Virus record (IMG/VR): IMGVR_UViG_3300045988_130116
DNA: 64,000 bases
Reading direction: 5' to 3' (one strand)
Origin: a virus
Positions 2,314-14,387 of this stretch are shown here, piece after piece (within the stretch, counting starts at the first letter, position 1; every line of letters begins with the position of its first letter). Made by a program: the position numbers and the translations under genes. Below the pieces are notes generated by a model that made no database searches, had not been told where the DNA came from, and saw nothing but the letters and a program-made list of their open reading frames with translations.

Positions 2314-2318
2314 GTGTT

Positions 2319-2350
2319 TTTAGAAAATAGCTAAGAGATTTTCTTAGCTA
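2319..2350 (-). terminator. probable rho-independent terminator overlapping the stop of 2348-2668
   Basis: 9-bp stem TAGCTAAGA/TCTTAGCTA (2328-2350), then TTTTCT on the minus strand. Confidence 0.5.
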
Positions 2351-2668: not shown

Positions 2669-2701
2669 ATTACCAACTCCCTTATTTCTTATTATATATA
2701 T

Positions 2702-2730
2702 ATTGTATCACACTTTAACAATGTTGTCAA
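2702..2730 (-). promoter_or_regulatory. consensus early promoter (TTGACA-17-TACAAT)
   Basis: Hand-checked spacing. Upstream of 2348-2668. Confidence 0.75.
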
Positions 2731-2737
2731 GGATTTT

Positions 2738-3064
2738 TTAGTATTCTTCGCTATAAATATCGTACCAAGTGTTATACGGATAATATCTTTCAAATATATG
2801 ATACTTCCAATTATACTTATAGTCCTTGCCTTTAACGTTGTCTTCTGTTATGACCATTAACTCCTGTTCTTCGTTAGAAGTAGTTATACCCATGATTCTT
2901 ATAGCTTCGCTATATCCCTTCCAGTGTCTGTCGTCTTTTATCTTAATTAACTCTATCTTCGTTACCTTGCTACATAAGCAGCCGTATTCAAACCCTAATG
3001 GTTTAGTTTTATATCTTGTTAACCTCTTGCTTAAAGCCTCGTATTCTTTTCTTATATCTAACAT
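2738..3064 (-). CDS. hypothetical early protein (108 aa)
   Basis: ORF track. RBS AGGAGGG. Promoter at 3128-3156. The 5' UTR contains a GC hairpin at 3090-3109. Confidence 0.8.
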   Translation of the reverse strand: MLDIRKEYEALSKRLTRYKTKPLGFEYGCLCSKVTKIELIKIKDDRHWKGYSEAIRIMGITTSNEEQELMVITEDNVKGKDYKYNWKYHIFERYYPYNTWYDIYSEEY

Positions 3065-3127
3065 ATTATCACCCTCCTATATTTTTATTAAGGGAAGTTG
3101 CCTTCCCTTATCTCTTACTATACTTAT

Positions 3128-3156
3128 ATTATATCATATTATAAGACTATTGTCAA
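3128..3156 (-). promoter_or_regulatory. consensus early promoter (TTGACA-17-TATAAT)
   Basis: Hand-checked spacing. Upstream of 2738-3064 and abuts the stop of 3157-3975. Confidence 0.75.
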
Positions 3157-3975
3157 CTATTTTTGAAAAAAATCTAATATTTTTTGTGAAGTTTTATTTA
3201 TAATATCTAAAGAATCTTTTAACTCTTTAAGTTCTTTGCCTCTGCTCCAACTTGCAACATAACCAAAGCTATAATCGTCTGTATTAAGTCCTAACCCTCT
3301 GCAAACTATATAAGCTATACTTTCTGCTTGAACTTCTTTAGTTCTTCTATCAATCCCATCATCAAGGTTACAATGTAATATACTATGTGCTAATTCATGG
3401 ATAATTGTTTTTAGTTTGTGAATATCGTCTAAAGATTCTTTTATATGAATATCGTTCATAAGAACATCGTAATATCCATTAGTAGAACCTTCATTTAGGC
3501 TTTTATCTATTGTTATAGCAACCTCTGTATTATTTAAAGCATAATTGATTAGGGATTTAATCTCATCACTATTCTCTTTTAATTCTGTTGCTAAAGAAGG
3601 TTTATCTCCTTCAACTTGAGTGATATCAAATACATTTCCTAATTTAAAGTATAAATGATTTTTTACCACTTCTTCTCCGTCTTCTTCTACTATTGTATTA
3701 TATTTAACTGGGCAAAGTATCTTTAAGGCTTTAGCACCCTTCTTAATCTTAAACCCTAGTCTATTCCAAGTTGTAAAACTAGCAACTTGACCTGCATTAG
3801 GATTTTGTAGCATTATTAAAATTATATTTCCATAACTGTAATTATGGAATTTGCTACAGAAGTCTAGGTATTCTTGATATTTACCACTTTCAAATACCTC
3901 TTTAACTCCACTTTCTAAATCTTGCATGAATTTATTAACCTCTTGTTTCTTTTGTCCTGTTTTTTTATATCTCAT
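3157..3975 (-). CDS. ArdC-like antirestriction protein (ssDNA-binding N-domain plus HExxH metalloprotease domain)
   Basis: N-terminal YSYGNIILIMLQNPNAGQVASFTTWNRLGFKIKKGAKALKIL resembles the ArdC N-domain. The C-terminal half has IIHELAHSILH and EVQAESIAYIV, as in the ArdC zincin domain. The call rests on remembered family motifs only. Confidence 0.6.
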   Translation of the reverse strand: MRYKKTGQKKQEVNKFMQDLESGVKEVFESGKYQEYLDFCSKFHNYSYGNIILIMLQNPNAGQVASFTTWNRLGFKIKKGAKALKILCPVKYNTIVEEDGEEVVKNHLYFKLGNVFDITQVEGDKPSLATELKENSDEIKSLINYALNNTEVAITIDKSLNEGSTNGYYDVLMNDIHIKESLDDIHKLKTIIHELAHSILHCNLDDGIDRRTKEVQAESIAYIVCRGLGLNTDDYSFGYVASWSRGKELKELKDSLDIINKTSQKILDFFQK

Positions 3976-4008
3976 ATTATCAACTCCCTTATTCTTTATT
4001 ATATTTAT

Positions 4009-4037
4009 ATTATATCATATTATAAGGTTGTTGTCAA
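4009..4037 (-). promoter_or_regulatory. consensus early promoter (TTGACA-17-TGaTATAAT)
   Basis: Complement reads TTGACAacaaccttataatatgaTATAAT. Upstream of 3157-3975. Confidence 0.8.
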
Positions 4038-4046
4038 GTGATTTTA

Positions 4047-4086
4047 GAAAAAAAATAAAAAAATATAGTGGAATAAATCCACTATA
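4047..4086 (-). terminator. rho-independent terminator
   Basis: 9-bp stem TATAGTGGA/TCCACTATA (4064-4086) followed on the minus strand by a T run (plus-strand A run 4047-4063). Confidence 0.7.
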
Positions 4087-4345
4087 CACTTAACTCTTTT
4101 ATTTTATTCTCTATTATCTGTTCTATAGGAAGACTATTATTTTTACTTATAATTGTTAATTCTATTCCTTCATTTACTACAGGTTTATTATCTATATAAG
4201 GTATAACGTATGCTTCATCATCTAAACATAAAACATATTTTATATCCTCTGACCCAAACTCTAGCCCTGTATAAAATATATCATACATGGTTATAATTTC
4301 TTCTCTTATCACTTCGTCTTTTAGCAGTTTTATATATTTATCCAT
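4082..4345 (-). CDS. hypothetical early protein (87 aa)
   Basis: ORF track. Overlaps the upstream ORF by 8 nt. Terminator at 4047-4086. Confidence 0.7.
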   Translation of the reverse strand: MDKYIKLLKDEVIREEIITMYDIFYTGLEFGSEDIKYVLCLDDEAYVIPYIDNKPVVNEGIELTIISKNNSLPIEQIIENKIKELSV

Positions 4346-4601
4346 TCTTATTCACCCCTCTTACCGTTTTTAAAGCAATACTCTCTTCATTGTCTATATC
4401 TATACCTTCTGATTTTAGAACGTCTTTAACAAGGTTCGTGCCGTTTCTAAACTTATAATCCTCAAATAAGACTTCTGCATCAACTCCTGTTATTATTCCC
4501 AGATCATTTATCATATCGTATATTAGGTTATGTAGGAACATAAGATGTTCTTGCATAGATAATTCATTCGGGAATATTATTTCCTCTTTGCACCTTATCA
4601 T
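4338..4601 (-). CDS. hypothetical early protein (87 aa)
   Basis: ORF track. RBS AAGGAGG. Promoter at 4685-4713. Confidence 0.75.
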   Translation of the reverse strand: MIRCKEEIIFPNELSMQEHLMFLHNLIYDMINDLGIITGVDAEVLFEDYKFRNGTNLVKDVLKSEGIDIDNEESIALKTVRGVNKNG

Positions 4602-4602
4602 G

Positions 4603-4668
4603 CTATTTACCTCCTTTAATAAGGTTAATTTTCTTTCTTAGATTTATTCTTTTTCTCAATTTTATCAT
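4603..4668 (-). CDS. possible 21-aa basic leader peptide (MIKLRKRINLRKKINLIKGGK)
   Basis: Own reading. ATG at complement 4666-4668 is preceded by GGAGGTAATGGT. Its last codons contain the RBS of the 4338-4601 gene. It may simply be a chance ORF in the 5' UTR. Confidence 0.25.
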   Translation of the reverse strand: MIKLRKRINLRKKINLIKGGK

Positions 4669-4684
4669 ACCATTACCTCCTTCT

Positions 4685-4713
4685 ATTTTATCACACTTTA
4701 AGGTTGTTGTCAA
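4685..4713 (-). promoter_or_regulatory. early promoter (TTGACA-17-TAAAAT)
   Basis: Hand-checked spacing. Upstream of 4338-4601 with an 83-nt leader. Confidence 0.65.
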
Positions 4714-4715
4714 CC

Positions 4716-5303
4716 CTAAAGTGTTATTATTCTTCCAGTTGCTACTTCTTTAGCAACTAAGTTAGCAGTTCTATGACAAGTAGGACGATATCTTAAAAGT
4801 AAACTCTTGTTTAGTCTATTTCTCTTAGCTACCACCTTACCACATTCGCTACATATTATATGGTATTTATAAACTGGAGCAACAGGTACATTAACTACGC
4901 TATTATTAATAGCAACGACTGGATTAGCTTCTCTGTATTTCTTCATATAGTCTGTAGTTTTAGTTCTGTTATCTCTTACTCCATACATTCTACAAAATCT
5001 CTTCCAAGTATCATTGTGTCCTACTGGTTTTCCGCAGTATATATTTGCTAATACATGAATTACTTCATGATGAATAGTATCTATAACATCGCTTTTTTCT
5101 CCGTATTCAAGATACTTTTTATTGAACGTAAACTTTACAGGCTTCCCGTTAGCATTTAGATAACTAACTTGCCCCAAAGTTCTAGTCATTCTGGAAGATA
5201 TATTTATAGGAGTATTTTTTATATACTCTAAAATCAAGTCTCTATGTTCTTCTTTCATGCTATTTACAAAATCCACCATTTCTTTTCTTATCATTTCTAC
5301 CAT
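4716..5303 (-). CDS. SprT-like zinc metalloprotease-domain protein with a C-terminal zinc ribbon
   Basis: SRMTRTLGQ...TFNKKYL...IDTIHHEVIHVLA (HExxH) and CSECGK...PTCH. The start is moved to ATG 5301-5303 (MVEMIRKEM) because the track start at 5321 would include the RBS GAGGGGG. Confidence 0.6.
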   Translation of the reverse strand: MVEMIRKEMVDFVNSMKEEHRDLILEYIKNTPINISSRMTRTLGQVSYLNANGKPVKFTFNKKYLEYGEKSDVIDTIHHEVIHVLANIYCGKPVGHNDTWKRFCRMYGVRDNRTKTTDYMKKYREANPVVAINNSVVNVPVAPVYKYHIICSECGKVVAKRNRLNKSLLLRYRPTCHRTANLVAKEVATGRIITL

Positions 5304-5337
5304 ATTATCAATCCCCCTCATTCTTTATTATACTTAT

Positions 5338-5366
5338 ATTATATCACATTATCAAAATGTTGTCAA
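5338..5366 (-). promoter_or_regulatory. consensus early promoter (TTGACA-17-TATAAT)
   Basis: Hand-checked spacing. Upstream of the SprT-like gene. Confidence 0.75.
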
Positions 5367-5419
5367 GTATTTTTTTTAATTTTTTTTGAGAATTTTTAAG
5401 ATAACCTTCGAGTCTTTTG

Positions 5420-5611
5420 TTAAAATTCTAATTTATCATTTAACCACAATTTGTAGTTTTTTACTGTAGCTAGTTTATAAGCCTCTTCCATCATTCCATC
5501 TACATCATCACCTTCTTCATCTTCATGTCTTATAAAAACTTCTTGAATTAAAAAGTCCATAAATTCCTCAAAGTCTGGTTGGCTTTGTAAGTTTTTCTTT
5601 GTTATTTTCAT
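5420..5611 (-). CDS. hypothetical acidic early protein (63 aa)
   Basis: ORF track. RBS AAGGGGG. Promoter at 5644-5672. Confidence 0.7.
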   Translation of the reverse strand: MKITKKNLQSQPDFEEFMDFLIQEVFIRHEDEEGDDVDGMMEEAYKLATVKNYKLWLNDKLEF

Positions 5612-5643
5612 TTTTAATCCCCCTTATTTTTTATTATATTTAT

Positions 5644-5672
5644 ATTATATCATATATTAATAACATTGTCAA
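5644..5672 (-). promoter_or_regulatory. consensus early promoter (TTGACA-17-TATAAT)
   Basis: Hand-checked spacing. Upstream of 5420-5611. Confidence 0.75.
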
Positions 5673-5683
5673 GTATTATTTTT

Positions 5684-5766
5684 AAAGATACTAAAATTTT
5701 TATCATTCATTTTATAAAGATACTAAAATGATTATCATTTAATAAAGTTACTAAAATAGTCATCAT
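5684..5766. repeat. three tandem ~30-nt repeats AAAG(A/T)TACTAAAAT-N3-(T)ATCAT
   Basis: Copies start at 5684, 5716 and 5744. Confidence 0.6.
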
Positions 5767-5952
5767 CTCAAACATTATTTAACTATACTTAATATATCAT
5801 CATTCTAAGTCTATTATCATTCTGTAATTTGATGTATTGTTGATATATATAGATATAATATTATTTAAGTATTTCAATATACCTAAAATACCCCCGTATT
5901 TAGATTTTAAGCATATTGTAACACTTAAACAAGTAATTACATTAATACCAAA

Positions 5953-5972
5953 GGCTATGCTTTTACATAGCC
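5953..5972 (-). terminator. probable terminator hairpin after the glutamine amidotransferase-like gene
   Basis: 7-bp stem GGCTATG/CATAGCC, then TTTGGTATT on the minus strand (a weak T tract). Confidence 0.4.
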
Positions 5973-6025
5973 CTCGATACCTGTAATTTACCGTCTCCGT
6001 TCTCTCTTGTAGTTATACTTATAAT

Positions 6026-7036
6026 CTACCATATTTTATACACCTTTTCACCAGTCATAGTAAGTCTTCTTTCATCATAGTTAACTCTGTATAACCAACA
6101 ATCGTTATCAATAACGTATTTATCTTGATAAGTGTAAAGATACATACCGCTTACTAATTCGACAAACTCATCAGTTAATGGAGTTTTATCTGCTAAAGCC
6201 TCTATGAAGTCTAATTTATCCATACGTTTATTTTCTACAAAGAAAGCTTGGAAATAGTCTTCAAAGTTATCAAAATAAAGTGCAGGGTCATCAACTATAT
6301 CGTCATAAGAAGGTGATAAATCTTTTTTTACTTTTTCAGCAGATTTATAATTAAATTTTACATATTTTTTTGTGTTTGTGTCCCAATAATATCCGTAGTC
6401 ATCATCCCATTCATGGTCATAACTATAAGGATTAGAAAAACTTTTATTATAGTAATATTTATCCCAACTTCTAGGTTCATAAGAATCGTTAGAGAATATC
6501 CAACCTTCTTCTTTTTCTATGAAGTCTCCATATAATTCTATTTCTCCATTAGATTTAAGAATACAGAATTTACCGTTGCCCTTCATTTCTTTAGCTAAAA
6601 CATCTTTATTATTAAGTCTCCATAAGCTAAATACATCATCTAATATAAATCTTTGTGTGTCACTCATTTTTTCTTCCCAAGCATATTTACCTATAATACC
6701 ATTGTGAACGATACCTGATCCACAATTTATTTCAGTTTTTCTTAATTTTTTCAATTTGTTAGTTATTGGGAATGGATGGCAAGTTTCCTTACTTATTCCA
6801 CCACTTGTTGAAATTCTAAAGTGCATTACTAAATTCTTTTCTTCAAGATGTTTATTATCCCAAAGTTCTTCTAGTCTTTCAATATATTTGTCTACATCAA
6901 AGAACCCTTTTTCTATGTGAACCTTATTATTGTCCACAAACATGAATCCTGCTCCGTCAGAATTATGAAGGAAACAGTTTTTTACATACTCTTCATTTAA
7001 TTTATACCCTTTTTCTTTTACAGCTATTATACACAT
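6026..7036 (-). CDS. class II (Ntn-type) glutamine amidotransferase-like protein with an extra C-terminal domain
   Basis: Starts MCIIAV (nucleophile Cys right after Met). Also has NSDGAGFMFV, HFRISTSGG, CHPF and IVHNGII, as in GATase_4/YafJ-type proteins. Promoter at 7080-7108, terminator at 5953-5972. Confidence 0.6.
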   Translation of the reverse strand: MCIIAVKEKGYKLNEEYVKNCFLHNSDGAGFMFVDNNKVHIEKGFFDVDKYIERLEELWDNKHLEEKNLVMHFRISTSGGISKETCHPFPITNKLKKLRKTEINCGSGIVHNGIIGKYAWEEKMSDTQRFILDDVFSLWRLNNKDVLAKEMKGNGKFCILKSNGEIELYGDFIEKEEGWIFSNDSYEPRSWDKYYYNKSFSNPYSYDHEWDDDYGYYWDTNTKKYVKFNYKSAEKVKKDLSPSYDDIVDDPALYFDNFEDYFQAFFVENKRMDKLDFIEALADKTPLTDEFVELVSGMYLYTYQDKYVIDNDCWLYRVNYDERRLTMTGEKVYKIW

Positions 7037-7079
7037 TCCACATCACTCCTTTTAATATCTCATTTCTTACTATACTTAT

Positions 7080-7108
7080 ATTATATCATAAATTAATACT
7101 GTTGTCAA
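7080..7108 (-). promoter_or_regulatory. consensus early promoter (TTGACA-17-TATAAT)
   Basis: Hand-checked spacing. Upstream of the glutamine amidotransferase-like gene. Confidence 0.75.
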
Positions 7109-7321
7109 GTGTTTTTTGATTTTTTTTAAAACTTTTTTATTTTTTTTTATTGACTTATAAATATAATATAGTATAATAATATATGTAGTAAATAACAAGT
7201 GTGCTTAATGTTTCACTTAAAGATAAAATTAATATTCCTTAAATTATATATTAAATTAATGTTACACTTGTTATTTATTTATTCTATTTATTATTGTTTA
7301 TTTTTTTTGCATTATTTTTAC

Positions 7322-7398
7322 ATAAAGTCGAAGGATTTTTTGAGTCCTCCCCTCTTTGTGCAAAATAAAGTCGAAGGATTTTTAGGGTCTTACCCCCT
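7322..7398. repeat. two direct repeats ATAAAGTCGAAGGATTTTT..(G)AG(G)TC.T.CCCCT inside the orphan transcript
   Basis: Copies at 7322-7353 and 7365-7398. Confidence 0.6.
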
Positions 7399-7410
7399 AT
7401 TCATACTTAT

Positions 7411-7439
7411 ATTGTATCATAAATTAATAGTGTTGTCAA
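7411..7439 (-). promoter_or_regulatory. orphan consensus early promoter (TTGACA-17-TACAAT) with no ORF downstream
   Basis: Same cassette as the others. The next ~300 nt leftward (7110-7410) have no RBS-ATG and contain two direct repeats. Confidence 0.65.
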
Positions 7440-7721
7440 GTGTTTTTTTATATATTCCTATGATTTTTTTATTTTCTATGGAATTGAAAAAATTTTTCTA
7501 TATGATTTTTTTATTCTTATATAGGAAAATATTTTTCTTTTTAATTGAACACTTGAACATATGTTCATATATTCAATTTTCCATATGAATATATATTCAT
7601 ATATTGTCAACCTTAATAAATAAAGTAAATTTTAAAAATACTTAATTTTATTAAAGTTCTGTATTCCATTGTAAAGAGTTATAAAAAAGAATTGATATAA
7701 TATATCATTAAGATGTTAACG

Positions 7722-8240
7722 CCTCTTAAATTGGCGTATAGAAGGTATTTTAGTTATATTCTATATTATTAAATTAAAACATTGAATTGACTTTATTTTT
7801 TAAATTGACTAGAATTATTTGAATTGTTTATACAAACGTGAATTTTCTGACAATTCAAAATACTCTTATTTCTTCTATATATATTATAACATTTTTGACC
7901 TAAAAAGTCAAGGAAAAGTTTTTGACACTATTCGACAATATTATACAAAAAAACAACCGTTCTATTTTAGCGTGTAAAAGGCTTTAAAAAGTTTTTAATA
8001 CTAATATATAGCTAATAGCTAAAACCTCTTAAATTGGCGTATAGAAGGTGTTTTAGTTATATTGGATAATTTAATATATTGTAAAATACGATATTTTATA
8101 TATGTATATTGTATACAAATATAGGTATATGCTAAAATATCCTTATATTTCAATTTTAAAGAGTTAGTATATATTAATCATATATTTATATTAAGATGTA
8201 TTTATAAGTGTCTTAAAAAGGCGTATAGAAGGTTATTATT
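7722..8240. repeat. three dispersed copies of CTTAAA(TT/AA)GGCGTATAGAAGGT...TTTTA
   Basis: 7722-7760 and 8025-8063 match at 38 of 39 positions. 8211-8240 is a shorter, diverged copy. Confidence 0.6.
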
Positions 8241-8297
8241 TTAAGATTTTTAAAAATATTACTGTAATTTATTCAAATTATAAAAAGTGACCTAAAA

Positions 8298-8312
8298 TGA
8301 TAATCATTATCA
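8298..8312. promoter_or_regulatory. perfect Fur-box palindrome TGATAATCATTATCA
   Basis: Exact match to the 7-1-7 Fur box TGATAATNATTATCA. Confidence 0.6.
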
Positions 8313-8413
8313 TTTATAATATTGTATAAAAACTTGTTTAATGTATACAAGTTGTTTCTTTATAAGAGTATTTAAAATTTAAATTATTTCCGAGTAGGCC
8401 GCTTTTTTCTAAT

Positions 8414-8428
8414 TAATAATCATTCTCA
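8414..8428. promoter_or_regulatory. Fur-like box (complement TGAGAATGATTATTA, 13/15)
   Basis: Left arm of the 8414-8559 inverted repeat. Confidence 0.4.
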
Positions 8429-8484
8429 ATTAATAATTATTTTCATCAGGAAGGACCGCAGTCTAATTGAAAATTATTTTCAGT

Positions 8485-8499
8485 TGATAATTATTATCA
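8485..8499. promoter_or_regulatory. perfect Fur-box palindrome TGATAATTATTATCA
   Basis: Exact match to the 7-1-7 Fur box. Lies at the centre of the 8414-8559 inverted repeat. Confidence 0.6.
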
Positions 8500-8544
8500 T
8501 AAATTCTGATCATCTGAGGGTCCGCAGTGAGAATTGATATTAAT

Positions 8545-8559
8545 TGAGAATGATTATCA
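8545..8559. promoter_or_regulatory. Fur-like box TGAGAATGATTATCA (14/15)
   Basis: Right arm of the 8414-8559 inverted repeat. Confidence 0.45.
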
Positions 8560-8575
8560 CCTCTGGTTACTTCTG

Positions 8576-8607
8576 AAAAAAAAATACCTTTGGAAAAATC
8601 CAAAGGT
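8576..8607 (-). terminator. rho-independent terminator ending the amidoligase cassette
   Basis: 9-bp stem ACCTTTGGA/TCCAAAGGT with a 4-nt loop (8586-8607), then a T run on the minus strand (plus-strand A run 8576-8584). Confidence 0.75.
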
Positions 8608-8625
8608 TTAAAGTAAGTTATTTAA

Positions 8626-9852
8626 TTAAAAAGTGTCATTTAAATAGTGAGATAGATATATATCTAAATTTTGATATTCTTCAAGGTTATTATCAATTAT
8701 TTCTCTAATCTTATATTTATTGTTAGTTTTATTAATATCATTAAATAATAGTAATTTAATTAACTCTATATTTGCAAATATATTTCTAAAAGATAAAGTC
8801 CCCTTAAAAAGTCTAAATTCTATTGTAGAGTAGTTATTAAAATTAATTATATGATATCTATCTCCCCACTTGTTTTCTAATGCTATATTTTCCAAGTTAC
8901 CTAAACTAGTGTCATAAAATGGAGACCATCTATTAAAACGACCTATATCCCTTTGACTATAGTCAAATATAAAGTCCTTGTTTAATTCCATAAATTGAAG
9001 AATATCTATCATTCTACTTTTTACAAAATTATTTTTAGTTATATGAATATGACCTCCACAAGAAGAATCTATATCAAAGTTAGCGCATTTTAAAAATCTA
9101 GTCATTTTTGGAATTACATCGTATGCAACATTAAAGCCTAACGGTTGACTTATAAACTCTATACCATTATTTAACGACCCATCCTCTTCTATATGGAAAT
9201 ATTTTTGCCAATTAAAATTATTATTGTCACAAATTTGTATAAAATCATTTATACATTCATTTATATTTGAGCGTGTTATTACCTCTAATTCAAGTCCTAA
9301 AAATACGCCTTCTTTACTCTCTCCAATAGGACTATATTCTCCATCCCATTCATGATAACTGTATACAAAGTCGTTGCAAGTCTCACAGTAGCAATCAATA
9401 CAATAAAACTCTCCATCCCCTTCATTATAATATAAGTCTTCTATATCGATAGCCTCTTCACAGTTGTAGCAATAATTCCACGCCTCACTCCTAGAAGAAT
9501 AACAATAAGTATTGCATTCAACCTCAACAAATTCATCGGTAGAGGCTTCTAATTCGTGATGGAAATCGCAATAATCAATATAATATCTTAAAGAAAAATC
9601 GTTAATACAGTCTCTACATCCGTCGAATATATTTATATAGATATTGTCTTCTAATACATGGATTTCTTCTATATCGTCTATTATTTCAACGTCGTTGATA
9701 TCGTCTTTATTATCTAATTCATTGATAGAGTCCATTATATTCTCCATATAAGGACAAGTATTACAAGAACAACTACCTTTTAAATTTTTCATAAATTCAA
9801 CGCTAAAATTATTATTTTCTAATACCTCAACTAATAAACTATTATTTAACAT
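8626..9852 (-). CDS. Cys-rich N-domain fused to an amidoligase (Amidoligase_2 / GCS2-like) domain
   Basis: The C-terminal half has GLELEV, EEDGSLNNGIEFISQP, SSCGGHIHI and TIEFRLFKGTL, which fit the amidoligase_2 motif order. The N-terminal ~170 aa has many CxxC pairs. Terminator at 8576-8607. Confidence 0.65.
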   Translation of the reverse strand: MLNNSLLVEVLENNNFSVEFMKNLKGSCSCNTCPYMENIMDSINELDNKDDINDVEIIDDIEEIHVLEDNIYINIFDGCRDCINDFSLRYYIDYCDFHHELEASTDEFVEVECNTYCYSSRSEAWNYCYNCEEAIDIEDLYYNEGDGEFYCIDCYCETCNDFVYSYHEWDGEYSPIGESKEGVFLGLELEVITRSNINECINDFIQICDNNNFNWQKYFHIEEDGSLNNGIEFISQPLGFNVAYDVIPKMTRFLKCANFDIDSSCGGHIHITKNNFVKSRMIDILQFMELNKDFIFDYSQRDIGRFNRWSPFYDTSLGNLENIALENKWGDRYHIINFNNYSTIEFRLFKGTLSFRNIFANIELIKLLLFNDINKTNNKYKIREIIDNNLEEYQNLDIYLSHYLNDTF

Positions 9853-9882
9853 ATAATTTTACCTCCTAATTATTTATTATAG

Positions 9883-9910
9883 TTAGGGAATTTTTAAAGG
9901 TATTCCCTAA
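9883..9910 (-). promoter_or_regulatory. conserved leader hairpin upstream of the amidoligase gene
   Basis: 9-bp stem TTAGGGAAT/ATTCCCTAA with a 10-nt loop, ~30 nt upstream of the RBS. A near-identical copy lies at 10593-10620. Confidence 0.5.
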
Positions 9911-9925
9911 AAACCTTTTATAAAA

Positions 9926-10564
9926 TTATTGATTATTGTTTAAATAATCATTATATAATTTTTTCCAATAATTCCATATACAACAACAACAATTTGAAAA
10001 ATCATTATTTTTACATTCGCAATATTTTTTTGGAATTTCTATACCTTCTTTTTGGTATGCTCTAATTAAACAAGTCGATTCTTTCTCAAAGGCTTGATTA
10101 ACATAACTAGAAAAGAATCGGTCATTCCTTAAATATAGAGGGTCACAAATACAGTTTAGGTCATTTTTAAAAGTAGATATTTTTTCAATTTCTTTACTTA
10201 CAAATATTGAAAAATTCATTTTTTCACCATAACCACAAATGCAAGTATTTTCATTTATCCACAAAAATTTGTGAGGTAATACTTCATAACGATTATGTTT
10301 ATTACAATATTCCATAAAATACCATCCATTATATTCCATACAGTTTTTACATTCCATAAAAACATTTACTTGTTTTATATTTTCTTTATCGTCATACATA
10401 TAGCAATTTACTATTTTATTATTAGTGCTTTTATTTTCTAATAAATTGTTTAAAATATTACAGTTATTACACTTGCAAAAAGCCTCACTTTCAAGTTGTT
10501 TAAAGACTTGTATATCTAAATTTAAGCCTTCTAATAAACTTACTAATTCTTTATTGTTTAACAT
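9926..10564 (-). CDS. Cys-rich protein, paralog of the N-domain of the amidoligase protein
   Basis: MLNNKELVSLLEGLNLDIQVFKQLESEAFCKCNNCN aligns with MLNNSLLVEVLENNNFSVEFMKNLKGSCSCNTCP of 8626-9852. Both genes have a near-identical 65-nt leader. Confidence 0.75.
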   Translation of the reverse strand: MLNNKELVSLLEGLNLDIQVFKQLESEAFCKCNNCNILNNLLENKSTNNKIVNCYMYDDKENIKQVNVFMECKNCMEYNGWYFMEYCNKHNRYEVLPHKFLWINENTCICGYGEKMNFSIFVSKEIEKISTFKNDLNCICDPLYLRNDRFFSSYVNQAFEKESTCLIRAYQKEGIEIPKKYCECKNNDFSNCCCCIWNYWKKLYNDYLNNNQ

Positions 10565-10592
10565 ATAATTTTACCTCCTAATTGTTTTATAG

Positions 10593-10620
10593 TTAGGGAA
10601 TTTATAAAGGTATTCCCTAA
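10593..10620 (-). promoter_or_regulatory. conserved leader hairpin upstream of the Cys-rich paralog
   Basis: Same stem as 9883-9910. The loop differs at one position. Confidence 0.5.
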
Positions 10621-10647
10621 AAACCTAATTTTAAAAATATTGTCAAC

Positions 10648-10824
10648 TTATAAATAATAAATTTCATTTAAAGTGTCTATTATATAAGATACATTTAATC
10701 CACTTTGAACGCCTACAAAGTCCGTAATATCCATTAATTTTAAACTAATAGGATTTTTAAAAGTTACTATTAAAGCTACTATTATGCAAATTGTTTTTAC
10801 TATTCTATTTATTTTTTTATTCAT
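10648..10824 (-). CDS. small membrane protein (58 aa), not in the ORF track
   Basis: Own reading. ATG at complement 10822-10824 is preceded by AAAGGGAGGG. Sequence MNKKINRIVKTICIIVALIVTFKNPISLKL... contains one hydrophobic helix. Confidence 0.5.
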   Translation of the reverse strand: MNKKINRIVKTICIIVALIVTFKNPISLKLMDITDFVGVQSGLNVSYIIDTLNEIYYL

Positions 10825-10840
10825 ATAAAGCCCTCCCTTT

Positions 10841-11197
10841 TTATTTTACTTTGCAAAAATCGTAAATTTTTTCTTGTCTTGTTCTATAATAGCAAGTTAA
10901 AATATTGCCACCAGTTAAACTTAAAACTACCATCAAAGTGGCTTGTTTACCTTCTATTATATCGTCTTTACGGTTACCGATGGTTAATACCTCCTCCATC
11001 GTACCCTTCTTTTTTTTGTTTTCCCTTATTTCATATAATAGGATTTTTCCATTTTGGGCTACGCTTCTAATGTATTCTTTATCTATAAAAACTGTATTTC
11101 TTTTTAATGCATGATAGGAAACATAAAAGCTTTTTTTTCTAGCGTTATCAAGTTTTATTTTATCTTTTTTATTTAAGTCTTTATATCTATACTTCAT
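10841..11197 (-). CDS. DUF4258-like (RelE/ParE-fold toxin-like) protein
   Basis: YVSYHALKRNTVFIDKEYIRSVAQNGKILLYE ... LMVVLSLTGGNILTCYY resembles the H-x-x-x-R ... ITvY pattern of DUF4258 proteins. This is a weak assignment from memory. Confidence 0.35.
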   Translation of the reverse strand: MKYRYKDLNKKDKIKLDNARKKSFYVSYHALKRNTVFIDKEYIRSVAQNGKILLYEIRENKKKKGTMEEVLTIGNRKDDIIEGKQATLMVVLSLTGGNILTCYYRTRQEKIYDFCKVK

Positions 11198-11208
11198 TTT
11201 ATCCCCTC

Positions 11209-11574
11209 CTATTTAACAAATATACATCTTTTATAGACTGTACTTGGTCGCCAATTTCTACCATCCGATGTACAGTAAACAACTTTATGACTTCTTGAAA
11301 ATTCATATAAACTTTTTAAGGTAAACTCTTCATTAGTATTTTTAATTCTAACTCTAGCACCTATTGTAATTCTTGGGTCATGGTCAATAGTTAAACATTC
11401 ATATTCTTTTTTATCCATGAATTGATTTTCTACTTTAAATATTAATTCTATTTTGTTTTCTTCATTTATTAAGTTACTTATACACTTTCCAAAGTACATC
11501 CCTTTTTCTTCTAATTCATGAATTTGTTTTCTTATTTCTTTTTTATTTAATCCTATTAATTTTATATATTTCAT
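11209..11574 (-). CDS. hypothetical protein (121 aa), first gene of the amidoligase cassette
   Basis: ORF track. RBS AAGGAGG. Confidence 0.75.
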   Translation of the reverse strand: MKYIKLIGLNKKEIRKQIHELEEKGMYFGKCISNLINEENKIELIFKVENQFMDKKEYECLTIDHDPRITIGARVRIKNTNEEFTLKSLYEFSRSHKVVYCTSDGRNWRPSTVYKRCIFVK

Positions 11575-12662
11575 TTTATTTCCTCCTTATTATTTATTTT
11601 ACTTATTCACTTTTATAAAATTATTGGTCACTAGAATTGTAACCGATATAATTAAGATTTTTAAAGAATGGATTTTTTAATATTATTGTCAACTCTTATT
11701 ATGTTATCTTATTATGTATTATTTAATTGTTAATATAATAGTAACACAAAAAAGTATAAAATACAACTTACAATTGATACAACTTTTTAAAAATGTTATT
11801 TACATATGATATTAAAATAAGATGGAAATTAATATTTGTATATGAAAAATATCCAAAAACTAGCACGTTTTTTTGTTAGGCAATTTATAAAAAAATTATT
11901 TACAAGTGATAAATAAAAATCAAATAAATTTTATCAAATAGTAAGTATTTTTTTATAATGCTTTACAAAAATTTACCATGATTTCTGAAAAATTTATATT
12001 TTTAAAATATATTGTTTATCAAAAATCACTTGTTAGTTTACAAGTGTTTAGATTTTTTACTCTATTTTTATATTTGTAAATTAAAAATAATAAAAATTTT
12101 TACATTATAATTATTATAGTTATTTTTAGAAAAATATAAAAAAAAATTATTTTATTTGTAAGTGTTTTATAGTATAATATTGAATAATTGTAAATTATAC
12201 CTATCTTTATATATATAAATAAAAAGATGTTAGAATAAAGATAGTTAAAAAGGTCATGATTTTATTAATTATCGTATTTCATTAGCTCAAATGTATAACG
12301 TTATAAGGCTTTTGGTGTGCTATCGTTCTGAATAACACGAACTATTATTTGTTATAATTCGGAAATGTATGTATCAAGGTAATTTACGACTTTATTCAAC
12401 ACTAATCGACGCTTCTGTACGCCCTTGTGAGGCGTTCTAAAAAGTTGCCTTTATATTCTATCGTACGATTTTAAAAGTACATTTAACCTTATGAACGCCT
12501 ATATAAGAATAGGCAAGAATAAATTAACAAGTAACAACAAGAATATGTTGCAAGTTGTTAATTATAACTTGCAATTATTATACAATTTATTTCATAGTTA
12601 GATAGTAGGAAATCAGGAAGAATGTAAATGATAATGGCTCTCAACTGCGGTCCATGAATAGT

Positions 12663-12677
12663 TGAGAATGATTATCG
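12663..12677. promoter_or_regulatory. Fur-like box TGAGAATGATTATCG (13/15), part of the composite repeat
   Basis: Preceded by CTGCGGTCCATGA at 12645-12657. Confidence 0.4.
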
Positions 12678-12743
12678 CCACAGACTGCGGTCCATGAATA
12701 AGCGTAAATGAAATCCATTATCAACTGATATTGTATTCTCAAT

Positions 12744-12758
12744 TGAGAATGATTATCG
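12744..12758. promoter_or_regulatory. Fur-like box TGAGAATGATTATCG (13/15), part of the composite repeat
   Basis: Preceded by CTGCGGTCCATGA at 12685-12697. Confidence 0.4.
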
Positions 12759-12879
12759 AATGATTCAAAGTACCAACTTACAATTGTATACCACTATACA
12801 AGTTTTTGGAATTACTATAATTCCTATTAAAATAGTATGATATTATCATAATGATAATGATTAATGTATACAATGTAAA

Positions 12880-12894
12880 TGATAATCGTTATCG
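12880..12894. promoter_or_regulatory. Fur-like box TGATAATCGTTATCG (13/15)
   Basis: Immediately upstream of CTGCGGTCCATGA at 12896-12908. More GATAAT-type hexamers lie at 12838-12866. Confidence 0.4.
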
Positions 12895-12913
12895 ACTGCG
12901 GTCCATGAGTAGG

Positions 12914-12928
12914 TGAGAATGGTTATCG
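12914..12928. promoter_or_regulatory. Fur-like box TGAGAATGGTTATCG (12/15)
   Basis: Follows CTGCGGTCCATGA at 12896-12908. Confidence 0.3.
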
Positions 12929-13226
12929 AATGGTAAAAAGTAACAACTTGTATACAAAATACAATATGTTTATATTTGTTTTTGTATACACTACAATTCA
13001 TAGTGGAATAGCAGAGAATAGAATAAGTATTAATTGATAATGTTTCTTAAATAAGTTAATGTTTTAATTAATAATAATAATAGAATAATAATAATATTAT
13101 TTTGATAATCAAAATATTTGATAATCATAACATTATCAATATGATAACTAAATTATACAATATACATAATTGCCAACTTGTTTTATTAATACAATATGTT
13201 TATATATACTATTGTATACATTAATA

Positions 13227-13440
13227 TTATAGTATGTTATATTGTCTTATATATATTATAACGTACTGTACTATTGTATTGTATAGTATAGTATACGATA
13301 TATTATGTATATATGTTATACTATTATGTATTATATTTGTATATGTATTATTATATACGTATTGCATATGTATATATAGTATGTATTGATGTATTATATA
13401 TGATGTATTATTGTATTGCATTGTTATATATAGTATGTAT
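13227..13440. repeat. AT-rich low-complexity tract (degenerate TATGTAT/TTGTAT units), almost C-free on the plus strand
   Basis: By eye there are only about a dozen C in ~210 nt. Confidence 0.7.
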
Positions 13441-13496
13441 TATATAGGTATATATGTTATACCAATGCATTGGTCACTTGATAGGTATAGCAAAGG

Positions 13497-13511
13497 TGAG
13501 AACGATTATCG
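13497..13511. promoter_or_regulatory. Fur-like box TGAGAACGATTATCG (12/15)
   Basis: Same family as the 12663 box, same orientation. Confidence 0.3.
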
Positions 13512-13701
13512 ATTGATAGCCTTGCATTTTTTGGTTAACCATTTTTGTATTTTGGGTTAACGTATTTTTTTATTGGAATGTATGAATAATTGAATATGTT
13601 TTTATATGAATATGTATTCATGTATTTGGGGATTTTTGGGTTGAATAAGTTCCTTCATTTTTACACGACAAAAAAATTTTTTCCTTCATTGACTAATCAT
13701 T

Positions 13702-13716
13702 CGATAATCATTCTCA
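13702..13716. promoter_or_regulatory. Fur-like box, inverted copy (complement TGAGAATGATTATCG)
   Basis: Opposite orientation to the 12663-13511 copies. Confidence 0.4.
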
Positions 13717-13886
13717 CCCTCATTTAATTAAGCTTCTTATATGAATTTGATAATCATAATCAACTACAATTTTTTTCTTTATATATCAAATATTTTTCCA
13801 TTCAAATATTTTGATTATCAAAGTATTTAATGTCGGATAATAGTATTGTTATAGGTCATTAATAGGGGGGATGTTTCATAATACTT

Positions 13887-13905
13887 GATAATGATAATCA
13901 TTCTG
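13887..13905. promoter_or_regulatory. 19-bp Fur-box-like site GATAATGATAATCATTCTG (17/19 to GATAATGATAATCATTATC)
   Basis: Overlaps CTGCGGCCC at 13903-13911. Confidence 0.5.
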
Positions 13906-13947
13906 CGGCCCCTAGCTACTACACTCAAGCACCATTTTTTCTCAAAG

Positions 13948-14056
13948 CACCATTTTTCACACCATTTTCCCATTATCTCCAATCAATCCTTCCACCTCCA
14001 CAACACCCCAAATATCCCTTTTTCAACCCTTCATATCTCATTAAAAACAATTAATT
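13948..14056. repeat. 109-nt G-free, C-rich tract on the plus strand with CACCATTTT repeats
   Basis: No G between 13948 and 14056. The minus strand is correspondingly C-free with GGG/GGGG runs. Confidence 0.7.
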
Positions 14057-14345
14057 GTATTAAACGAAAGAATAACAACAGTAATTATATATAGTTCCCA
14101 AATATAGGTAAATACAATAAAACAACCTTTTACATATACATAACATTGTATACAATAAAAGATTAAAGTCTCAATAAACACAACAAAAATGATATTAAAG
14201 GTAGGGGAGGGGTGGTTTGCATACTTTTTCTAAAGTTGAATAATAATGACCTTCTGTGTGCCATTTTAAGAAGATAAAATCAATAAGTTAAGTATTTGTA
14301 TTAAGAGTATTTTTTAGGTATATTAGAGAGGAAATATAAAAGGGC

Positions 14346-14380
14346 AAAAAAAAAGAGGAAAACATTTTCAGTTCTCCTCT
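14346..14380 (-). terminator. rho-independent terminator ending the long leftward operon
   Basis: Stem AGAGGA/TCCTCT (14354-14380), then a 9-nt T run on the minus strand (plus-strand A run 14346-14354). Confidence 0.6.
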
Positions 14381-14387
14381 GGAATAT

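Follow-up and report, generated by a model that had tools for sequence, protein, structure and literature searches.

Operators for host iron regulators are known from phage DNA, where Fur acts at the stx1 promoter and DtxR at the corynephage tox promoter and phage genes thereby respond to iron; single operators of this kind at phage toxin genes are textbook cases. On bacterial chromosomes, a Fur operator is usually a single box or a pair of boxes at an iron-gene promoter, and Fur boxes supplied in multicopy derepress the regulon, as in the classical Fur titration assay. The operator of low-GC Firmicutes is a 15-bp inverted repeat, TGATAATNATTATCA in B. subtilis and TGATAATVAWHWTCA in C. difficile. 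The published clostridial consensuses, TGATAATVAWHWTCA and TGATAATGATTTTCA, together with a predicted feoB1 site, TGAGAATGATTTTCT, bring the half-site variants TGAGAAT and TGAAAAT within the range of Fur, and a C. difficile prophage operon has a Fur site as well (PMC6311696). Phages of the SPbeta type use the dispersed 15-bp intergenic operator SPBRE, which stands in single copies over about ten promoters and is bound by the phage protein MrpR (PMC10516654). Decoy arrays, both synthetic and natural, titrate transcription factors (PMC3322331, PMC7826281, PMC8599769), and the known examples are synthetic, eukaryotic or chromosomal. In the literature that we searched there was no description of a natural phage-borne Fur sponge, nor of dense conserved Fur-operator arrays in phage non-coding control regions.

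The DNA analysed here, a 64-kb stretch of viral sequence that we call the window, corresponds to the early arm of a temperate phage of about 145 kb, of the SPbeta/phiCD211 kind, from gut metagenomes. By terminase its nearest named relatives belong to Clostridioides and Metaclostridioides, which makes a low-GC Firmicute, with a Fur specificity like that of the boxes described below, the probable host. These boxes lie in two ORF-free tracts, tract A (7036-8626, containing array A) and tract B (11574-14288), which flank a small operon ending in an amidoligase gene. They have in common with the Firmicute operators the 15-bp inverted repeat itself, present in two exact copies, the TGAGAAT and TGAAAAT variants, an overlap of neighbouring boxes by 6 bp and, for some boxes, a position against -10-like hexamers. 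In contrast to chromosomal operators, however, the tracts hold 6-8 and at least 12 boxes, with GC motifs between them and no iron gene nearby. The stx1, tox and C. difficile prophage cases are single operators at the promoter of a cargo gene, whereas here the arrays occupy non-coding control regions, no toxin or cargo gene is involved, and the arrays are conserved as a trait of the phage family. SPBRE is also a repeated intergenic operator of 15 bp, found in SPbeta, a large temperate Firmicute phage of broadly similar type; unlike SPBRE, the Fur-like boxes are concentrated in the two tracts, and the repeated early promoters have none. On balance we think that the boxes are operators for the Fur protein of the host, predicted to place the promoters of two phage control regions under iron control.

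Two clusters of Fur-type boxes in ORF-free DNA

The original prediction had reported two exact Fur boxes in an ORF-free stretch, at 8298-8312 and 8485-8499, and a related array at 12660-13905, and had estimated that well below one exact site should be expected per window. Both boxes are indeed exact copies of the 7-1-7 sequence TGATAATNATTATCA, of which no other copy exists in the 64 kb, and 100 dinucleotide shuffles gave an expectation of 0.01 exact sites per window, with two or more in none of the 100. When up to two mismatches were allowed, six sites were found in tract A (starting at 8298, 8414, 8431, 8468, 8485 and 8545) and six in tract B (12663, 12744, 12880, 13702, 13748 and 13886), the latter corresponding to the related array; together these are two exact and ten near matches. 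The remaining 59.7 kb of the window contains a single site of this quality, at 20489, and Markov-shuffled versions of the tracts, a control that had been named in advance, contained 0.13-0.24 sites against the six observed in each. The description of the DNA as ORF-free also held, with only short or low-complexity ORFs in tract A, and gene calling done independently on metagenome contigs of this phage left both tracts empty.

The Fur half-site ranked first among 140 palindromes, made by permuting TGATAAT, in nine of nine tracts from five lineages. In phiCD211 (131.7 kb, 26% GC) there were 11 scattered sites with up to two mismatches, none of them exact and no cluster, and 80 other viral loci had zero to three such sites each. 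Chance or AT-richness as the source of the boxes is ruled out by the shuffles, the 140 composition-matched palindromes and these empirical backgrounds. The sites exist far beyond chance, and they match variants of the clostridial Fur consensus.

The composition of the half-sites was tabulated from 60 boxes (120 half-sites). Positions 2-3 (GA) and 5-7 (AAT) are almost fixed, with G at position 2 in 90 of the 120 and A at position 3 in 116, and only position 4 varies (T in 79, G in 22, A in 19, C in none). Exact matches to the C. difficile consensus TGATAATVAWHWTCA number two in each tract. Boxes of the Zur type (TCGTAAT) are absent, and those of the PerR type (TTATAAT) are fewer than Fur-type boxes in every tract. 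Readings of the boxes as CodY, ARG-box, cre or Cheo-box sites were rejected on a misfit of spacing or orientation.

Anatomy of the two tracts

The features of both tracts, and of the isolated site further downstream, are collected in Table 1.

Table 1. Features of tracts A and B and the isolated box-like site, in window coordinates
Feature	Position	Strand	Remarks
Intrinsic terminator	8577-8607	minus	Hairpin 8586-8607 and T-run; ends the amidoligase operon
Fur-like box TGAGAATGATTATCA	8545-8559		1 mismatch; degenerate partner at 8528-8542, 17 bp away
GC motif GGTCCGCAG (CTGCGGACC on minus strand)	8519-8527	plus	Conserved in all lineages
Tandem box pair, TGAAAATTATTTTCA and TGATAATTATTATCA	8468-8499		17 bp centre to centre; first box 2 mismatches, second exact
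GC motif GGACCGCAG (CTGCGGTCC on minus strand)	8453-8461	plus	
Tandem box pair, TAATAATCATTCTCA and TAATAATTATTTTCA	8414-8445		2 mismatches each; inverted copy of 8528-8559
GC motif CCGAGTAGGCCGC (GCGGCCTACTCGG on minus strand)	8390-8402	plus	1-2 copies in every lineage
Interrupted palindrome AACTTGT-N9-ACAAGTT	8331-8353		Part of recurrent element AAAG(A/T)AACAACTTGTAT
Exact Fur box TGATAATCATTATCA	8298-8312		Kept in L330, L327, L364 and L365
Left array of tract B	12629-12928		Boxes at 12629, 12663, 12709, 12744, 12846/12852 (6-bp overlap), 12880 and 12914
TA-rich low-complexity repeats	13060-13460		Between the halves of tract B; at least 6 independent assemblies break here
Boxes 13497 (TGAGAACGATTATCG), 13702 (CGATAATCATTCTCA) and 13748 (TGATAATCATAATCA)	13497-13762		
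CATAATACTT followed by overlapping classical Fur box	13877-13906	plus	-10-like CATAAT at 13877-13882
G-poor, C-rich tract	13907-14060	plus	Motifs CCCC, CCTTCCACCTCCAC and CACCCC
Isolated box-like palindrome TGATAATTACAATCA	20489-20503		2 mismatches; 17 nt upstream of a sigma-factor ORF

Array A begins 18 nt past the T-run of the terminator, which is itself conserved in L330, L327 and L365. The box nearest to it reads TGATAATGATTCTCA in strain variants, and the central pair at 8468-8499 is unchanged across six of them. The GC motif of the kind found at 8390-8402 is in every case 13-20 nt away from a box or a pair of boxes, and further copies of the element AAAG(A/T)AACAACTTGTAT begin near 12772, 12941 and 13173. 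No clear promoter belonging to array A was seen between the terminator and the next transcription unit. At the other end of the array, a -10-like TATAAA on the minus strand (8318-8313, kept in L330) stands directly before the exact box at 8298-8312 and 16 nt after TAAACA (8340-8335), and may constitute a weak promoter at 8340-8313. The boxes at 8298 and 13886 both abut -10-like hexamers that are partly conserved; the putative promoters match the consensus at no more than 8 of 12 positions and were not reported by a consensus scan.

What the original prediction had missed is that the boxes are part of larger conserved modules with GC-rich motifs, and that the number of modules varies between strains. 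A 54-bp unit is present in one, two or three copies, or with an extra module, in different strains and lineages, and by unit duplication array A has either six or eight boxes in strain variants. Reading these units as tandem sigma-A promoters, with the box end as -35, the GC motif in the spacer and TCTAAT as -10, was rejected, since tract B does not show this geometry.

The array had also been described as an imperfect palindrome of about 145 bp centred on the box at 8485. The arms do exist, as 30-nt segments (8416-8445 and 8528-8557) that are 87% complementary, but the centre falls near 8486, close to the spacer of boxes 8468 and 8485, and not at 8492, the centre of box 8485. The GC motifs inside the palindrome are direct and not inverted repeats, and the palindrome is therefore only partial. 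As a single strand, the 146-bp imperfect hairpin folds with z = -3.7. This could be taken to mean that the tracts are a replication origin or another DNA-processing site, for packaging or recombination, in which the AT-rich palindromes, the TA-rich DNA and the strand-asymmetric C-rich/G-rich tract work structurally, through cruciforms, unwinding or R-loops, with the resemblance to Fur boxes being secondary. The TA-rich DNA (13060-13460) would suit such a function, as would more than 100 nt free of G at about 13950-14055, and numerous assemblies are interrupted in tract B, with one contig ending at 13455 in an Illumina adapter. However, the contig ends are spread over 400 bp, as low-complexity repeats would give, and not at a defined terminus; there are two similar tracts and not one; and structure gives no explanation for the Fur half-site ranking first of 140 palindromes of equal composition in every tract. 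We consider this reading very improbable. A genome terminus in tract B, suggested by the same contig ends, was rejected, as they are scattered from 13031 to 13455 in low-complexity DNA.

In tract B, CTGCGGTCC recurs at 12645, 12685 and 12896, each time between boxes and in the orientation opposite to that in array A, and the boxes at 13497 and 13702 are an inverted pair 205 bp apart. Two layouts are found, pairs of boxes 17 bp apart and classical Fur boxes overlapping by 6 bp. The second is represented by 13886/13892 and 12846/12852, and the 6-bp spacing recurs six times across lineages. Within the right-hand site, GATAATGATAATCATTCTG (13887-13905) matches GATAATGATAATCATTATC at 17 of 19 positions and is followed by CTGCGGCCC at 13903-13911; CATAATACTT and the box are conserved in the window, L320, L112, L330 and L327.

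Only three or four G residues occur in the 150 nt after box 13886, in all five of the variants compared; the first 30 nt of this C-rich tract are conserved in sequence, and beyond that the composition alone. The arrangement of a Fur box at the presumed start of a transcript, followed by C-rich, G-poor sequence, resembles the Fur-repressed C-rich small RNAs FsrA of B. subtilis and IsrR of S. aureus, and a transcript from 13907-14060 could likewise pair with Shine-Dalgarno sequences. It differs from them in that the transcript is hypothetical and longer (about 150 nt), no terminator was found after the tract, and Rfam gave no match at E <= 1 in 6500-15000.

Conservation across lineages and candidate binding proteins

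Five diverging lineages were compared, in which the amidoligase flanking the tracts is 100% to 53% identical (81%, 74%, 64% and 53% in the four others). The cluster in tract A is kept in five of five. Tract B is also clustered in four, being kept in the lineages with 81%, 74% and 53% identity, while the contig of the 64% lineage ends short of it. For tracts A and B respectively, the boxes number 3 and 7 in L330 (three of them exact), 3 and 7 in L327, and 4 and 4 in L364; tract A of L365 has 4. Between conserved blocks the tracts have undergone large insertions and deletions, and they align poorly in the most distant lineage. The boxes are thus conserved while flanking sequence and neighbouring genes change, and one operator consensus is shared by all five, even where the neighbouring protein has fallen to 53% identity.

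The GC motifs that stand between the boxes (CTGCGGTCC, CCTACTCGG and CTGCGGNCC) are a further conserved feature of these tracts, for which Fur binding gives no explanation.

A rather unlikely alternative is that the boxes serve a dimeric DNA-binding protein of the phage itself, a repressor, partition protein or initiator with a specificity equal to or mimicking that of Fur, in which case the arrays would serve as operators, centromere-like sites or iterons, with no part for iron. Such a protein would account for boxes embedded in longer conserved modules with additional GC motifs and for the variable number of 54-bp units, which recalls iterons and sopC-type centromeres. In addition, several boxes are strongly asymmetric, with a good TGAGAAT half-site and a degenerate, GC-rich second half, and form direct repeats every 17-18 bp that could suit an iteron protein binding as a monomer; the 400-bp TA-rich stretch between the two arrays of tract B is like an unwinding element; and MrpR of the SPbeta-type phages, acting on dispersed SPBRE sites, is a precedent for a phage-encoded binder (PMC10516654). 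Also in favour are a conserved ScpB-like winged-helix protein at 16647-17228 and a PriCT_1/DnaD_N protein about 4 kb left of the window, the nearest genes of the winged-helix and primase-like types, at distances of 2.4 kb (tract B) and upwards of 11 kb (tract A).

Nevertheless, no DNA-binding gene conserved between or beside the arrays was found. The genes between the arrays differ by lineage; only the amidoligase and a 118-aa protein lacking a DNA-binding signature are kept, and a 121-aa protein with a weak HTH is lost in L330 and L327. Neither of these two small proteins had a match in a PDB sequence search. No FUR, ParA or ParB domain is present in the genes called over the interval that begins 10 kb left of the window and ends at about 20640, which sets the arrays apart from sopC/parS-type centromeres, and phiCD211 has a partition gene and no box clusters. 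An iteron-type origin would have tandem repeats of about 17-22 bp beside an AT-rich unwinding region. The boxes come in pairs and triples spaced by 17 bp, and TA-rich DNA lies at 13060-13460; the repeats are palindromic and are found in two separate tracts. There is no initiator gene at or beside them and no DnaA-box cluster. As for a phage repressor and its operators, no adjacent cognate gene is conserved and the operator sequence does not diverge with lineage, while phage operator/repressor pairs usually diverge over a range such as that down to 53% neighbour identity. The boxes overlapping by 6 bp are a hallmark of Fur, and the 17-bp tandem boxes also occur in unrelated phages and upstream of bacterial fur and ferritin genes. 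Of the roles proposed in the original prediction, operators for a phage protein are therefore weakened, support for the decoy goes no further than the number of sites and the variation in copy number, and iron/Fur control of transcription fits the anatomy best.

A tblastn search of the window, with approximate sequences of the Fur proteins of B. subtilis and E. coli as queries, found no Fur homologue. There is also no iron-related gene adjoining the arrays in the window, the neighbours being the amidoligase, a GATase-like gene and small genes of unknown function.

No close DNA relatives were found among GenBank phages and PLSDB plasmids, and an amidoligase search of 185,579 species genomes returned zero prophage copies. 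Relatives recovered through the deoxyribosyltransferase-like gene (L113-L191) or the 121-aa gene (L311-L313) have neither the ORF-free tracts nor the boxes and were uninformative. In viral contigs the 14-mer ACTGCGGTCCATGA gave chance matches and one protein-coding repeat (L023, L070) only, and the 15-mer TGAGAATGATTATCG gave single chance matches among the matches listed.

The same layout elsewhere and predicted iron control

The pattern TGANAATNATTNTCA-NN-TGANAATNATTNTCA was scanned over 596 Gb of bacterial genomes, giving 10 loci. Two Pseudaeromonas genomes have two perfect boxes beside a ferritin-family gene, an Aeromonadaceae MAG has the identical perfect pair (a match found by pattern, on box sequence alone), and in a Rikenellaceae MAG a FUR-family gene is preceded, at about 95 nt, by at least 10 boxes. 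Another array adjoins a 2Fe-2S ferredoxin gene, and some adjoin glycoside hydrolase genes and not iron genes. The Rikenellaceae fur and Pseudaeromonas ferritin arrays share with the phage arrays identical boxes (TGAGAATGATTATCA and TGATAATNATTATCA) and identical 15+2 bp spacing. They differ in belonging to other phyla, in lying directly upstream of iron-homeostasis genes and in being uninterrupted 17-bp repeats, whereas in the phage the pairs are parted by GC-rich spacers. The layout was also found in unrelated viral contigs, among them an Acinetobacter-phage-like contig with at least 16 boxes, 11 of them exact. These contigs have no neighbouring gene family in common, which argues for a common host factor. 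The central claim of the original prediction, that these are non-random sites of the Fur type, is strengthened by the conservation in five lineages and by this bacterial 17-bp tandem layout.

We infer that the binder is Fur rather than another protein, as well as which promoters would be controlled and what roles their transcripts would have. Under iron-replete conditions, dimers of Fe(II)-Fur would occupy single boxes, tandem pairs and overlapping classical boxes. On the single boxes that abut -10-like elements, at 8298-8312 (minus strand) and 13886-13906 (plus strand), Fur would shut the corresponding promoters, the second of which would lead into the C-rich, G-poor transcript. The tandem 17-bp pairs and the boxes overlapping by 6 bp would form multi-dimer complexes just past the terminator and between transcription units. 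Under iron limitation, Fur would leave and the units would be released, and part of the early or maintenance programme of the phage may thereby be coupled to the iron status of the host.

The main function of such binding might instead lie in trans. A replicating phage, with hundreds of copies and 13-20 or more high-affinity sites on each, might present thousands of sites, strip Fur from the operators of the host and derepress host iron uptake, so that the iron taken up feeds iron-dependent enzymes encoded by the phage or the host. As in decoy arrays and the Fur titration assay, a multicopy replicon would carry numerous sites of high affinity for a single regulator (PMC3322331, PMC7826281). 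The number of sites per genome, varying by unit duplication (six or eight in array A), is consistent with such a sponge, and so are the placing of array A, which follows a terminator, precedes the next unit and has no clear promoter, and the longer arrays of unrelated phages, with at least 16 boxes in L338 and at least 8 in L349. Against it, the effect expected of a single-copy prophage is small, a sponge has no need of the conserved GC motifs, and the exact placing of some boxes next to conserved -10-like elements speaks for control in cis. Titration of Fur as the function of the arrays appears quite unlikely to us, and so does the wider reading in which equivalent arrays arose independently in the unrelated phages L338, L349, L350 and L352.

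If Fur of the host does bind the arrays, as we favour, a family of large gut phages would sense host iron, which changes with inflammation and diet, and phages present in many copies might even manipulate the iron status of the host. A sponge, if true, would be a natural viral transcription-factor decoy that reprograms host metal homeostasis. The arrays in unrelated phages and upstream of a Bacteroidales fur gene point to a wider and unstudied wiring of iron signals, and the arrays provide fragments of 150-300 bp that are directly testable.

The isolated site at 20489 is kept in L330 and was not seen in L327, and its membership in the system of Fur boxes is uncertain. The only tRNAs in the window are at 22489 and 22607. 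An integrase-like gene lies just past the left edge of the window, and repeated early-promoter modules of about 75 nt are present within it.

Fur boxes in two ORF-free tracts

Exact matches to the 15-bp, 7-1-7 Fur box occur at 8298-8312 and 8485-8499, as the original prediction had claimed, and nowhere else in the 64 kb, where 0.01 would be expected. With up to two mismatches allowed, the window contains 13 sites, of which six lie in 8298-8559 (array A), one at 20489 and six in 12663-13900, the last group corresponding to the related array that had been proposed for 12660-13905. Both clusters are indeed located in tracts without credible ORFs (tract A, 7036-8626; tract B, 11574-14288), and these were also left empty by independent gene callers. 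Shuffled controls, a suggested check, gave 0.13-0.24 sites per tract versus the six observed in each. As a composition control, the Fur palindrome was compared with 139 other 7-1-7 palindromes of equal half-site composition, and it ranked first of the 140 in every tract, in the window and in its relatives alike; the runner-up, the TAATGAT palindrome, results from reading the same arrays out of phase. Background levels were 0-3 sites in each of 80 other viral loci, and the equally AT-rich phiCD211 has 11 weak sites that are scattered and form no cluster.

The window (25-32% GC) encodes on the minus strand of 1-20000 small genes including ArdC-like, SprT-like, amidoligase, deoxyribosyltransferase-like and ECF-like sigma factor genes, and on the plus strand from 20500 a 400-aa sigma factor, two tRNAs, exonuclease, terminase, portal and tail genes. 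Its portal and large terminase are 32% and 53% identical to the counterparts in ~130-kb Clostridioides difficile phiCD211-type phage-plasmids, and comparison of these sequences places SPbeta-like Bacillus elements among the farther relatives. Many metagenome assemblies contain the same phage, in some cases on contigs of 145-147 kb, and a search of 185,579 species genomes gave no prophage copy. Judging from the nearest named relatives, the host is probably a low-GC Firmicute of the Peptostreptococcaceae. The two phage sigma factors, one of 228 aa with Sigma70_r2/r4 domains and the other a phrog_5767 member, face each other across a divergent switch region. The N-terminal ~170 aa of the amidoligase are Cys/His-rich with many CxxC motifs, and the 212-aa protein encoded upstream is a paralogue of this region (31% identity to the amidoligase N-terminus of the related phage L330); two further genes for amidoligases are located left of the window.

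Read on the minus strand, which is the local gene direction, tract A has the order listed in the table. The imperfect palindrome described earlier is present (146 bp), but its centre is the spacer of the central box pair and not box 8485, and the GC motifs it encloses are direct repeats, so that it is no more than a partial palindrome. Tract B has the modules of tract A in the opposite orientation, the two arrays thus flanking in inverted orientation a 3-kb operon (11574-8626) in which the amidoligase is last.

Positions of features in the window and of box pairs or arrays in other viral loci
Feature	Position	Strand	Remark
Tract A, 1st: amidoligase operon terminator	8607-8577	minus	
Tract A, 2nd: three 54-65-bp units			each a box pair, 17 bp centre to centre, plus GC-rich motif CTGCGGACC, CTGCGGTCC or GCGGCCTACTCGG
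Tract A, 3rd: AT-rich spacer			
Tract A, 4th: element			AAAGAAACAACTTGTATAC...CAAGTT
Tract A, 5th: exact box	8312-8298	minus	
Tract A, 6th: three strong consensus promoters	7911, 7439, 7108	minus	in next ~1.2 kb, with the 23-nt repeats
23-nt repeat, three copies	7724-7746, 8027-8049, 8211-8233		TCTTAAATTGGCGTATAGAAGGT
Tract B: boxes with ACTGCGGTCCATGA between them	12621-12928		
Tract B: boxes with AATGGTAAAAAGTAACAACTTGTATAC directly after			
Tract B: TA-rich stretch, 400 bp	13060-13460		low-complexity repeats
Tract B: inverted box pair	13497 and 13702		
Tract B: box	13748		
Tract B: classical overlapping box	13886-13906		17/19 bases match GATAATGATAATCATTATC
Amidoligase	8626-9852	minus	
212-aa protein	9926-10564	minus	
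Sigma factor, 228 aa	19196-19882	minus	
AAATAAAGACC(T/C), four copies	19930-20025		
Sigma factor, 400 aa	20520-21722	plus	
~75-nt early-gene repeat	1030-1140, 2245-2340, 2665-2745, 3105-3190, 3970-4060, 5300-5400, 5600-5715, 7060-7140, 7400-7475	minus	
Viral locus L348	3094-3125		
Viral locus L349	2848-3326		
Viral locus L350	257-305		
Viral locus L351	8569-8600		
Viral locus L352	1939-2045		
Viral locus L353	699-730		

Among strain variants (90-97% identical) array A has six or eight boxes, the difference being one duplicated module, and in one box a double substitution (TGAGAATGATTATCA to TGATAATGATTCTCA) makes the good and the weaker half-sites change places without loss of the box. With unit number differing from strain to strain, the dosage of sites may be important, and this keeps alive the idea of a sponge in which the arrays titrate Fur; the sites per genome would also suffice for physically plausible titration during lytic replication. 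We regard such titration as quite unlikely to be the main role of the arrays.

Conservation among related phages

An amidoligase homology search gave a graded series of relatives (loci of 8-21 kb), whose contigs preserve the gene order and tract A; tract B is preserved as well on every contig long enough to include it. At amidoligase identities of 81, 74, 64 and 53% (L330, L364, L365 and L327), tract A contains three, four, four and three boxes respectively, and tract B contains seven in L330, four in L364 and seven in L327, being off the contig in L365. Three boxes of L330 are exact, and tract B of L327 has ~19 at three mismatches. Nearly all sites in these loci fall within the two tracts, the exceptions being three weak L364 sites and the L330 counterpart of box 20489.

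In the tract A alignment the conserved blocks are the terminator, the boxes, CTGCGGNCC, CCTACTCGG, AACAACTTGTAT and the promoter-proximal box. These are separated by sequence that varies and contains large indels, and lineages differ in how many box units they have. The only genes that persist between the tracts are those for the amidoligase and a 118-aa protein; a 121-aa protein with a weak helix-turn-helix match is not persistent. This conservation of the boxes amid changing sequence and genes suggests that they are under purifying selection as protein-binding sites, and their specificity has not drifted across the lineages.

Other parts of tract B also drew attention. A higher-GC block at 12240-12620, between the AT-rich left part and the first boxes, is well conserved in all lineages; it has no ORF, no Rfam match and a fold z-score of only -1.5, and possible identities are a non-coding RNA and a further protein-binding region. 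At 14199-14277 (plus strand) a strongly conserved, Shine-Dalgarno-like AAAGGTAGGGGAGGGGTGG is followed by a 21-codon ORF from GTG 14212 (MVCILFLKLNNNDLLCAILRR), of which the length and ends are preserved in L327 (MVCIFIFGVLRNDLLYAILRS), and a C-rich tract upstream is predicted to pair with a G-rich stretch; this may be a micro-protein or toxin-like module. The TA-rich repeats are a breakpoint of at least six independent metagenome assemblies, and IMG/VR contig 3300045988_138989 ends there at ~13455 with an Illumina adapter (CGTGTGCTCTTCCGATCT).

Candidate binders

Several lines point to Fur as the binder. The half-sites are almost invariant at positions 2-3 (GA), by which Fur boxes are told from PerR and Zur boxes, and at positions 5-7 (AAT), and position 4 is the only variable one (T, G or A, never C); 6-bp box overlaps recur, and Zur-type matches were nil. 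In these respects the sites have the fine features of Fur operators. The box variants in the phage are those reported for clostridial Fur (PMC6311696), with consensuses TGATAATVAWHWTCA and TGATAATGATTTTCA and a predicted feoB1 site TGAGAATGATTTTCT (supplementary file 8 of the same work).

Two boxes at the 17-bp tandem spacing have only ten occurrences in 596 Gb of bacterial genomes. Two perfect boxes adjoin a ferritin-family gene in two Pseudaeromonas genomes (L357, 7012-7043; L360, 3973-4004), where GC content exceeds 60%; in a Rikenellaceae MAG (L363, 6413-6665) at least ten boxes form an array that ends ~95 nt ahead of a FUR-family gene, and another bacterial array adjoins a 2Fe-2S ferredoxin gene. 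The iron link is not universal, because other matches adjoin glycoside hydrolase (upstream of GH8 or GH9) or oxidoreductase genes. This unusual spacing appears to be a genuine operator layout. Bacterial chromosomes also have uninterrupted tandem 17-bp Fur-like boxes in runs of up to 13 (L363 and the Bacteroidales MAG arrays L355, 106-345, and L361, 3267-3451).

The same layout was found in six further viral loci of at least five unrelated phage types (30-41% GC), and where the flanks are on the contig (L348, L349, L352) it sits in a 1-2.7-kb ORF-free tract. Their neighbours differ (a T7-like terminase; a lysozyme with RNA ligase; L5 gp82/gp88-like genes). A separate scan for two perfect boxes within 31 bp gave 12 viral contigs. 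One is the Acinetobacter-phage-like L338 (IMGVR_UViG_3300033068_002045; 40% GC), which is unrelated to the window phage; beyond its structural genes, at 10760-11325, tandem 89-bp units contain at least 16 boxes, of which 11 are exact. Its cultured relative, Acinetobacter phage HHU4 (PQ619753.1; locus L346), has just one box, with 1 mismatch, in the equivalent position (1587 of the locus). Convergence across unrelated phages is explained better by a shared host factor than by a shared phage protein, and we think it unlikely that a phage protein sharing Fur specificity binds the boxes. No Fur homologue is encoded within the 64-kb window, and no FUR, ParA or ParB domain was found in the genes called from 10 kb left of it to ~20640. 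An origin-like or other structural role seems very improbable. In L348 and L351, TACTCGG-containing repeats precede the pair and are reminiscent of CCTACTCGG, perhaps by chance.

Possible control in cis and similar systems

On balance, we lean towards host Fur as both the binder and the agent of control in cis. Two boxes (13886 and 8298) occupy positions at which a bound repressor would prevent initiation. On the plus strand, the overlapping box directly follows a conserved CATAATACTT (-10-like CATAAT, 13877-13882), the next 30 bases are conserved, and the ~150 nt beyond them are C-rich and almost G-free in all five variants, while the sequence itself drifts. This putative transcription unit resembles the Fur-repressed C-rich small RNAs of Firmicutes; the C-rich tract after 13906 has no Rfam match and no terminator. 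On the minus strand, box 8298 directly follows a -10-like TATAAA with TAAACA 16 nt before it, a geometry kept in L330. Both putative promoters are weak matches absent from the consensus scan output, and promoter calls are unreliable in DNA this AT-rich. The tandem pairs of array A begin 18 nt past the terminator without an obvious promoter and could be a cooperative roadblock, an insulator or a sink for Fur. The poly-G run at 13866-13871, which separates the -35-like and -10-like elements ahead of the classical box, has 6, 7, 8 or 9 G across variants, and one contig ends inside it; the length differences are due either to sequencing noise or to phase-variable spacing of the promoter.

In each of the five lineages the GC motifs CTGCGG(T/A)CC and CCTACTCGG are kept at fixed distances from the boxes; they would not be needed for Fur binding. 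Some of the boxes amount to no more than half-sites, which repeat in direct orientation, and the AACAACTTGTATAC element is always found with boxes. A second factor probably shares these regions.

Phage DNA is known to carry operators for host metal regulators as single sites at cargo genes, such as stx1 and tox, whereas the window has arrays. The Fur site at a C. difficile prophage operon (PMC6311696) is likewise single. In full-text literature searches, neither arrays of Fur boxes in phage genomes nor natural transcription-factor decoys carried by phages were found described. SPbeta has a dispersed operator (SPBRE) for its own repressor (PMC10516654), and these promoter/operator repeats are resembled by the ~75-nt repeat found ahead of nearly every small minus-strand early gene of the window, in which the copies read (7080-7108 and 7411-7439) have a consensus promoter, TTGACA-17-TATAAT with extended -10. 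An integrase-like gene just left of the window is a possible analogue of MrpR, the SPBRE-binding protein. The 23-nt repeat of tract A is kept as CTCTTAAATTGGCR...AGGTATTTTAG in L327, and its sequence is compatible with a promoter on the plus strand (TTGGCR-N18-TATAYT), from which transcription would run toward the Fur-box array, antisense to the local genes.
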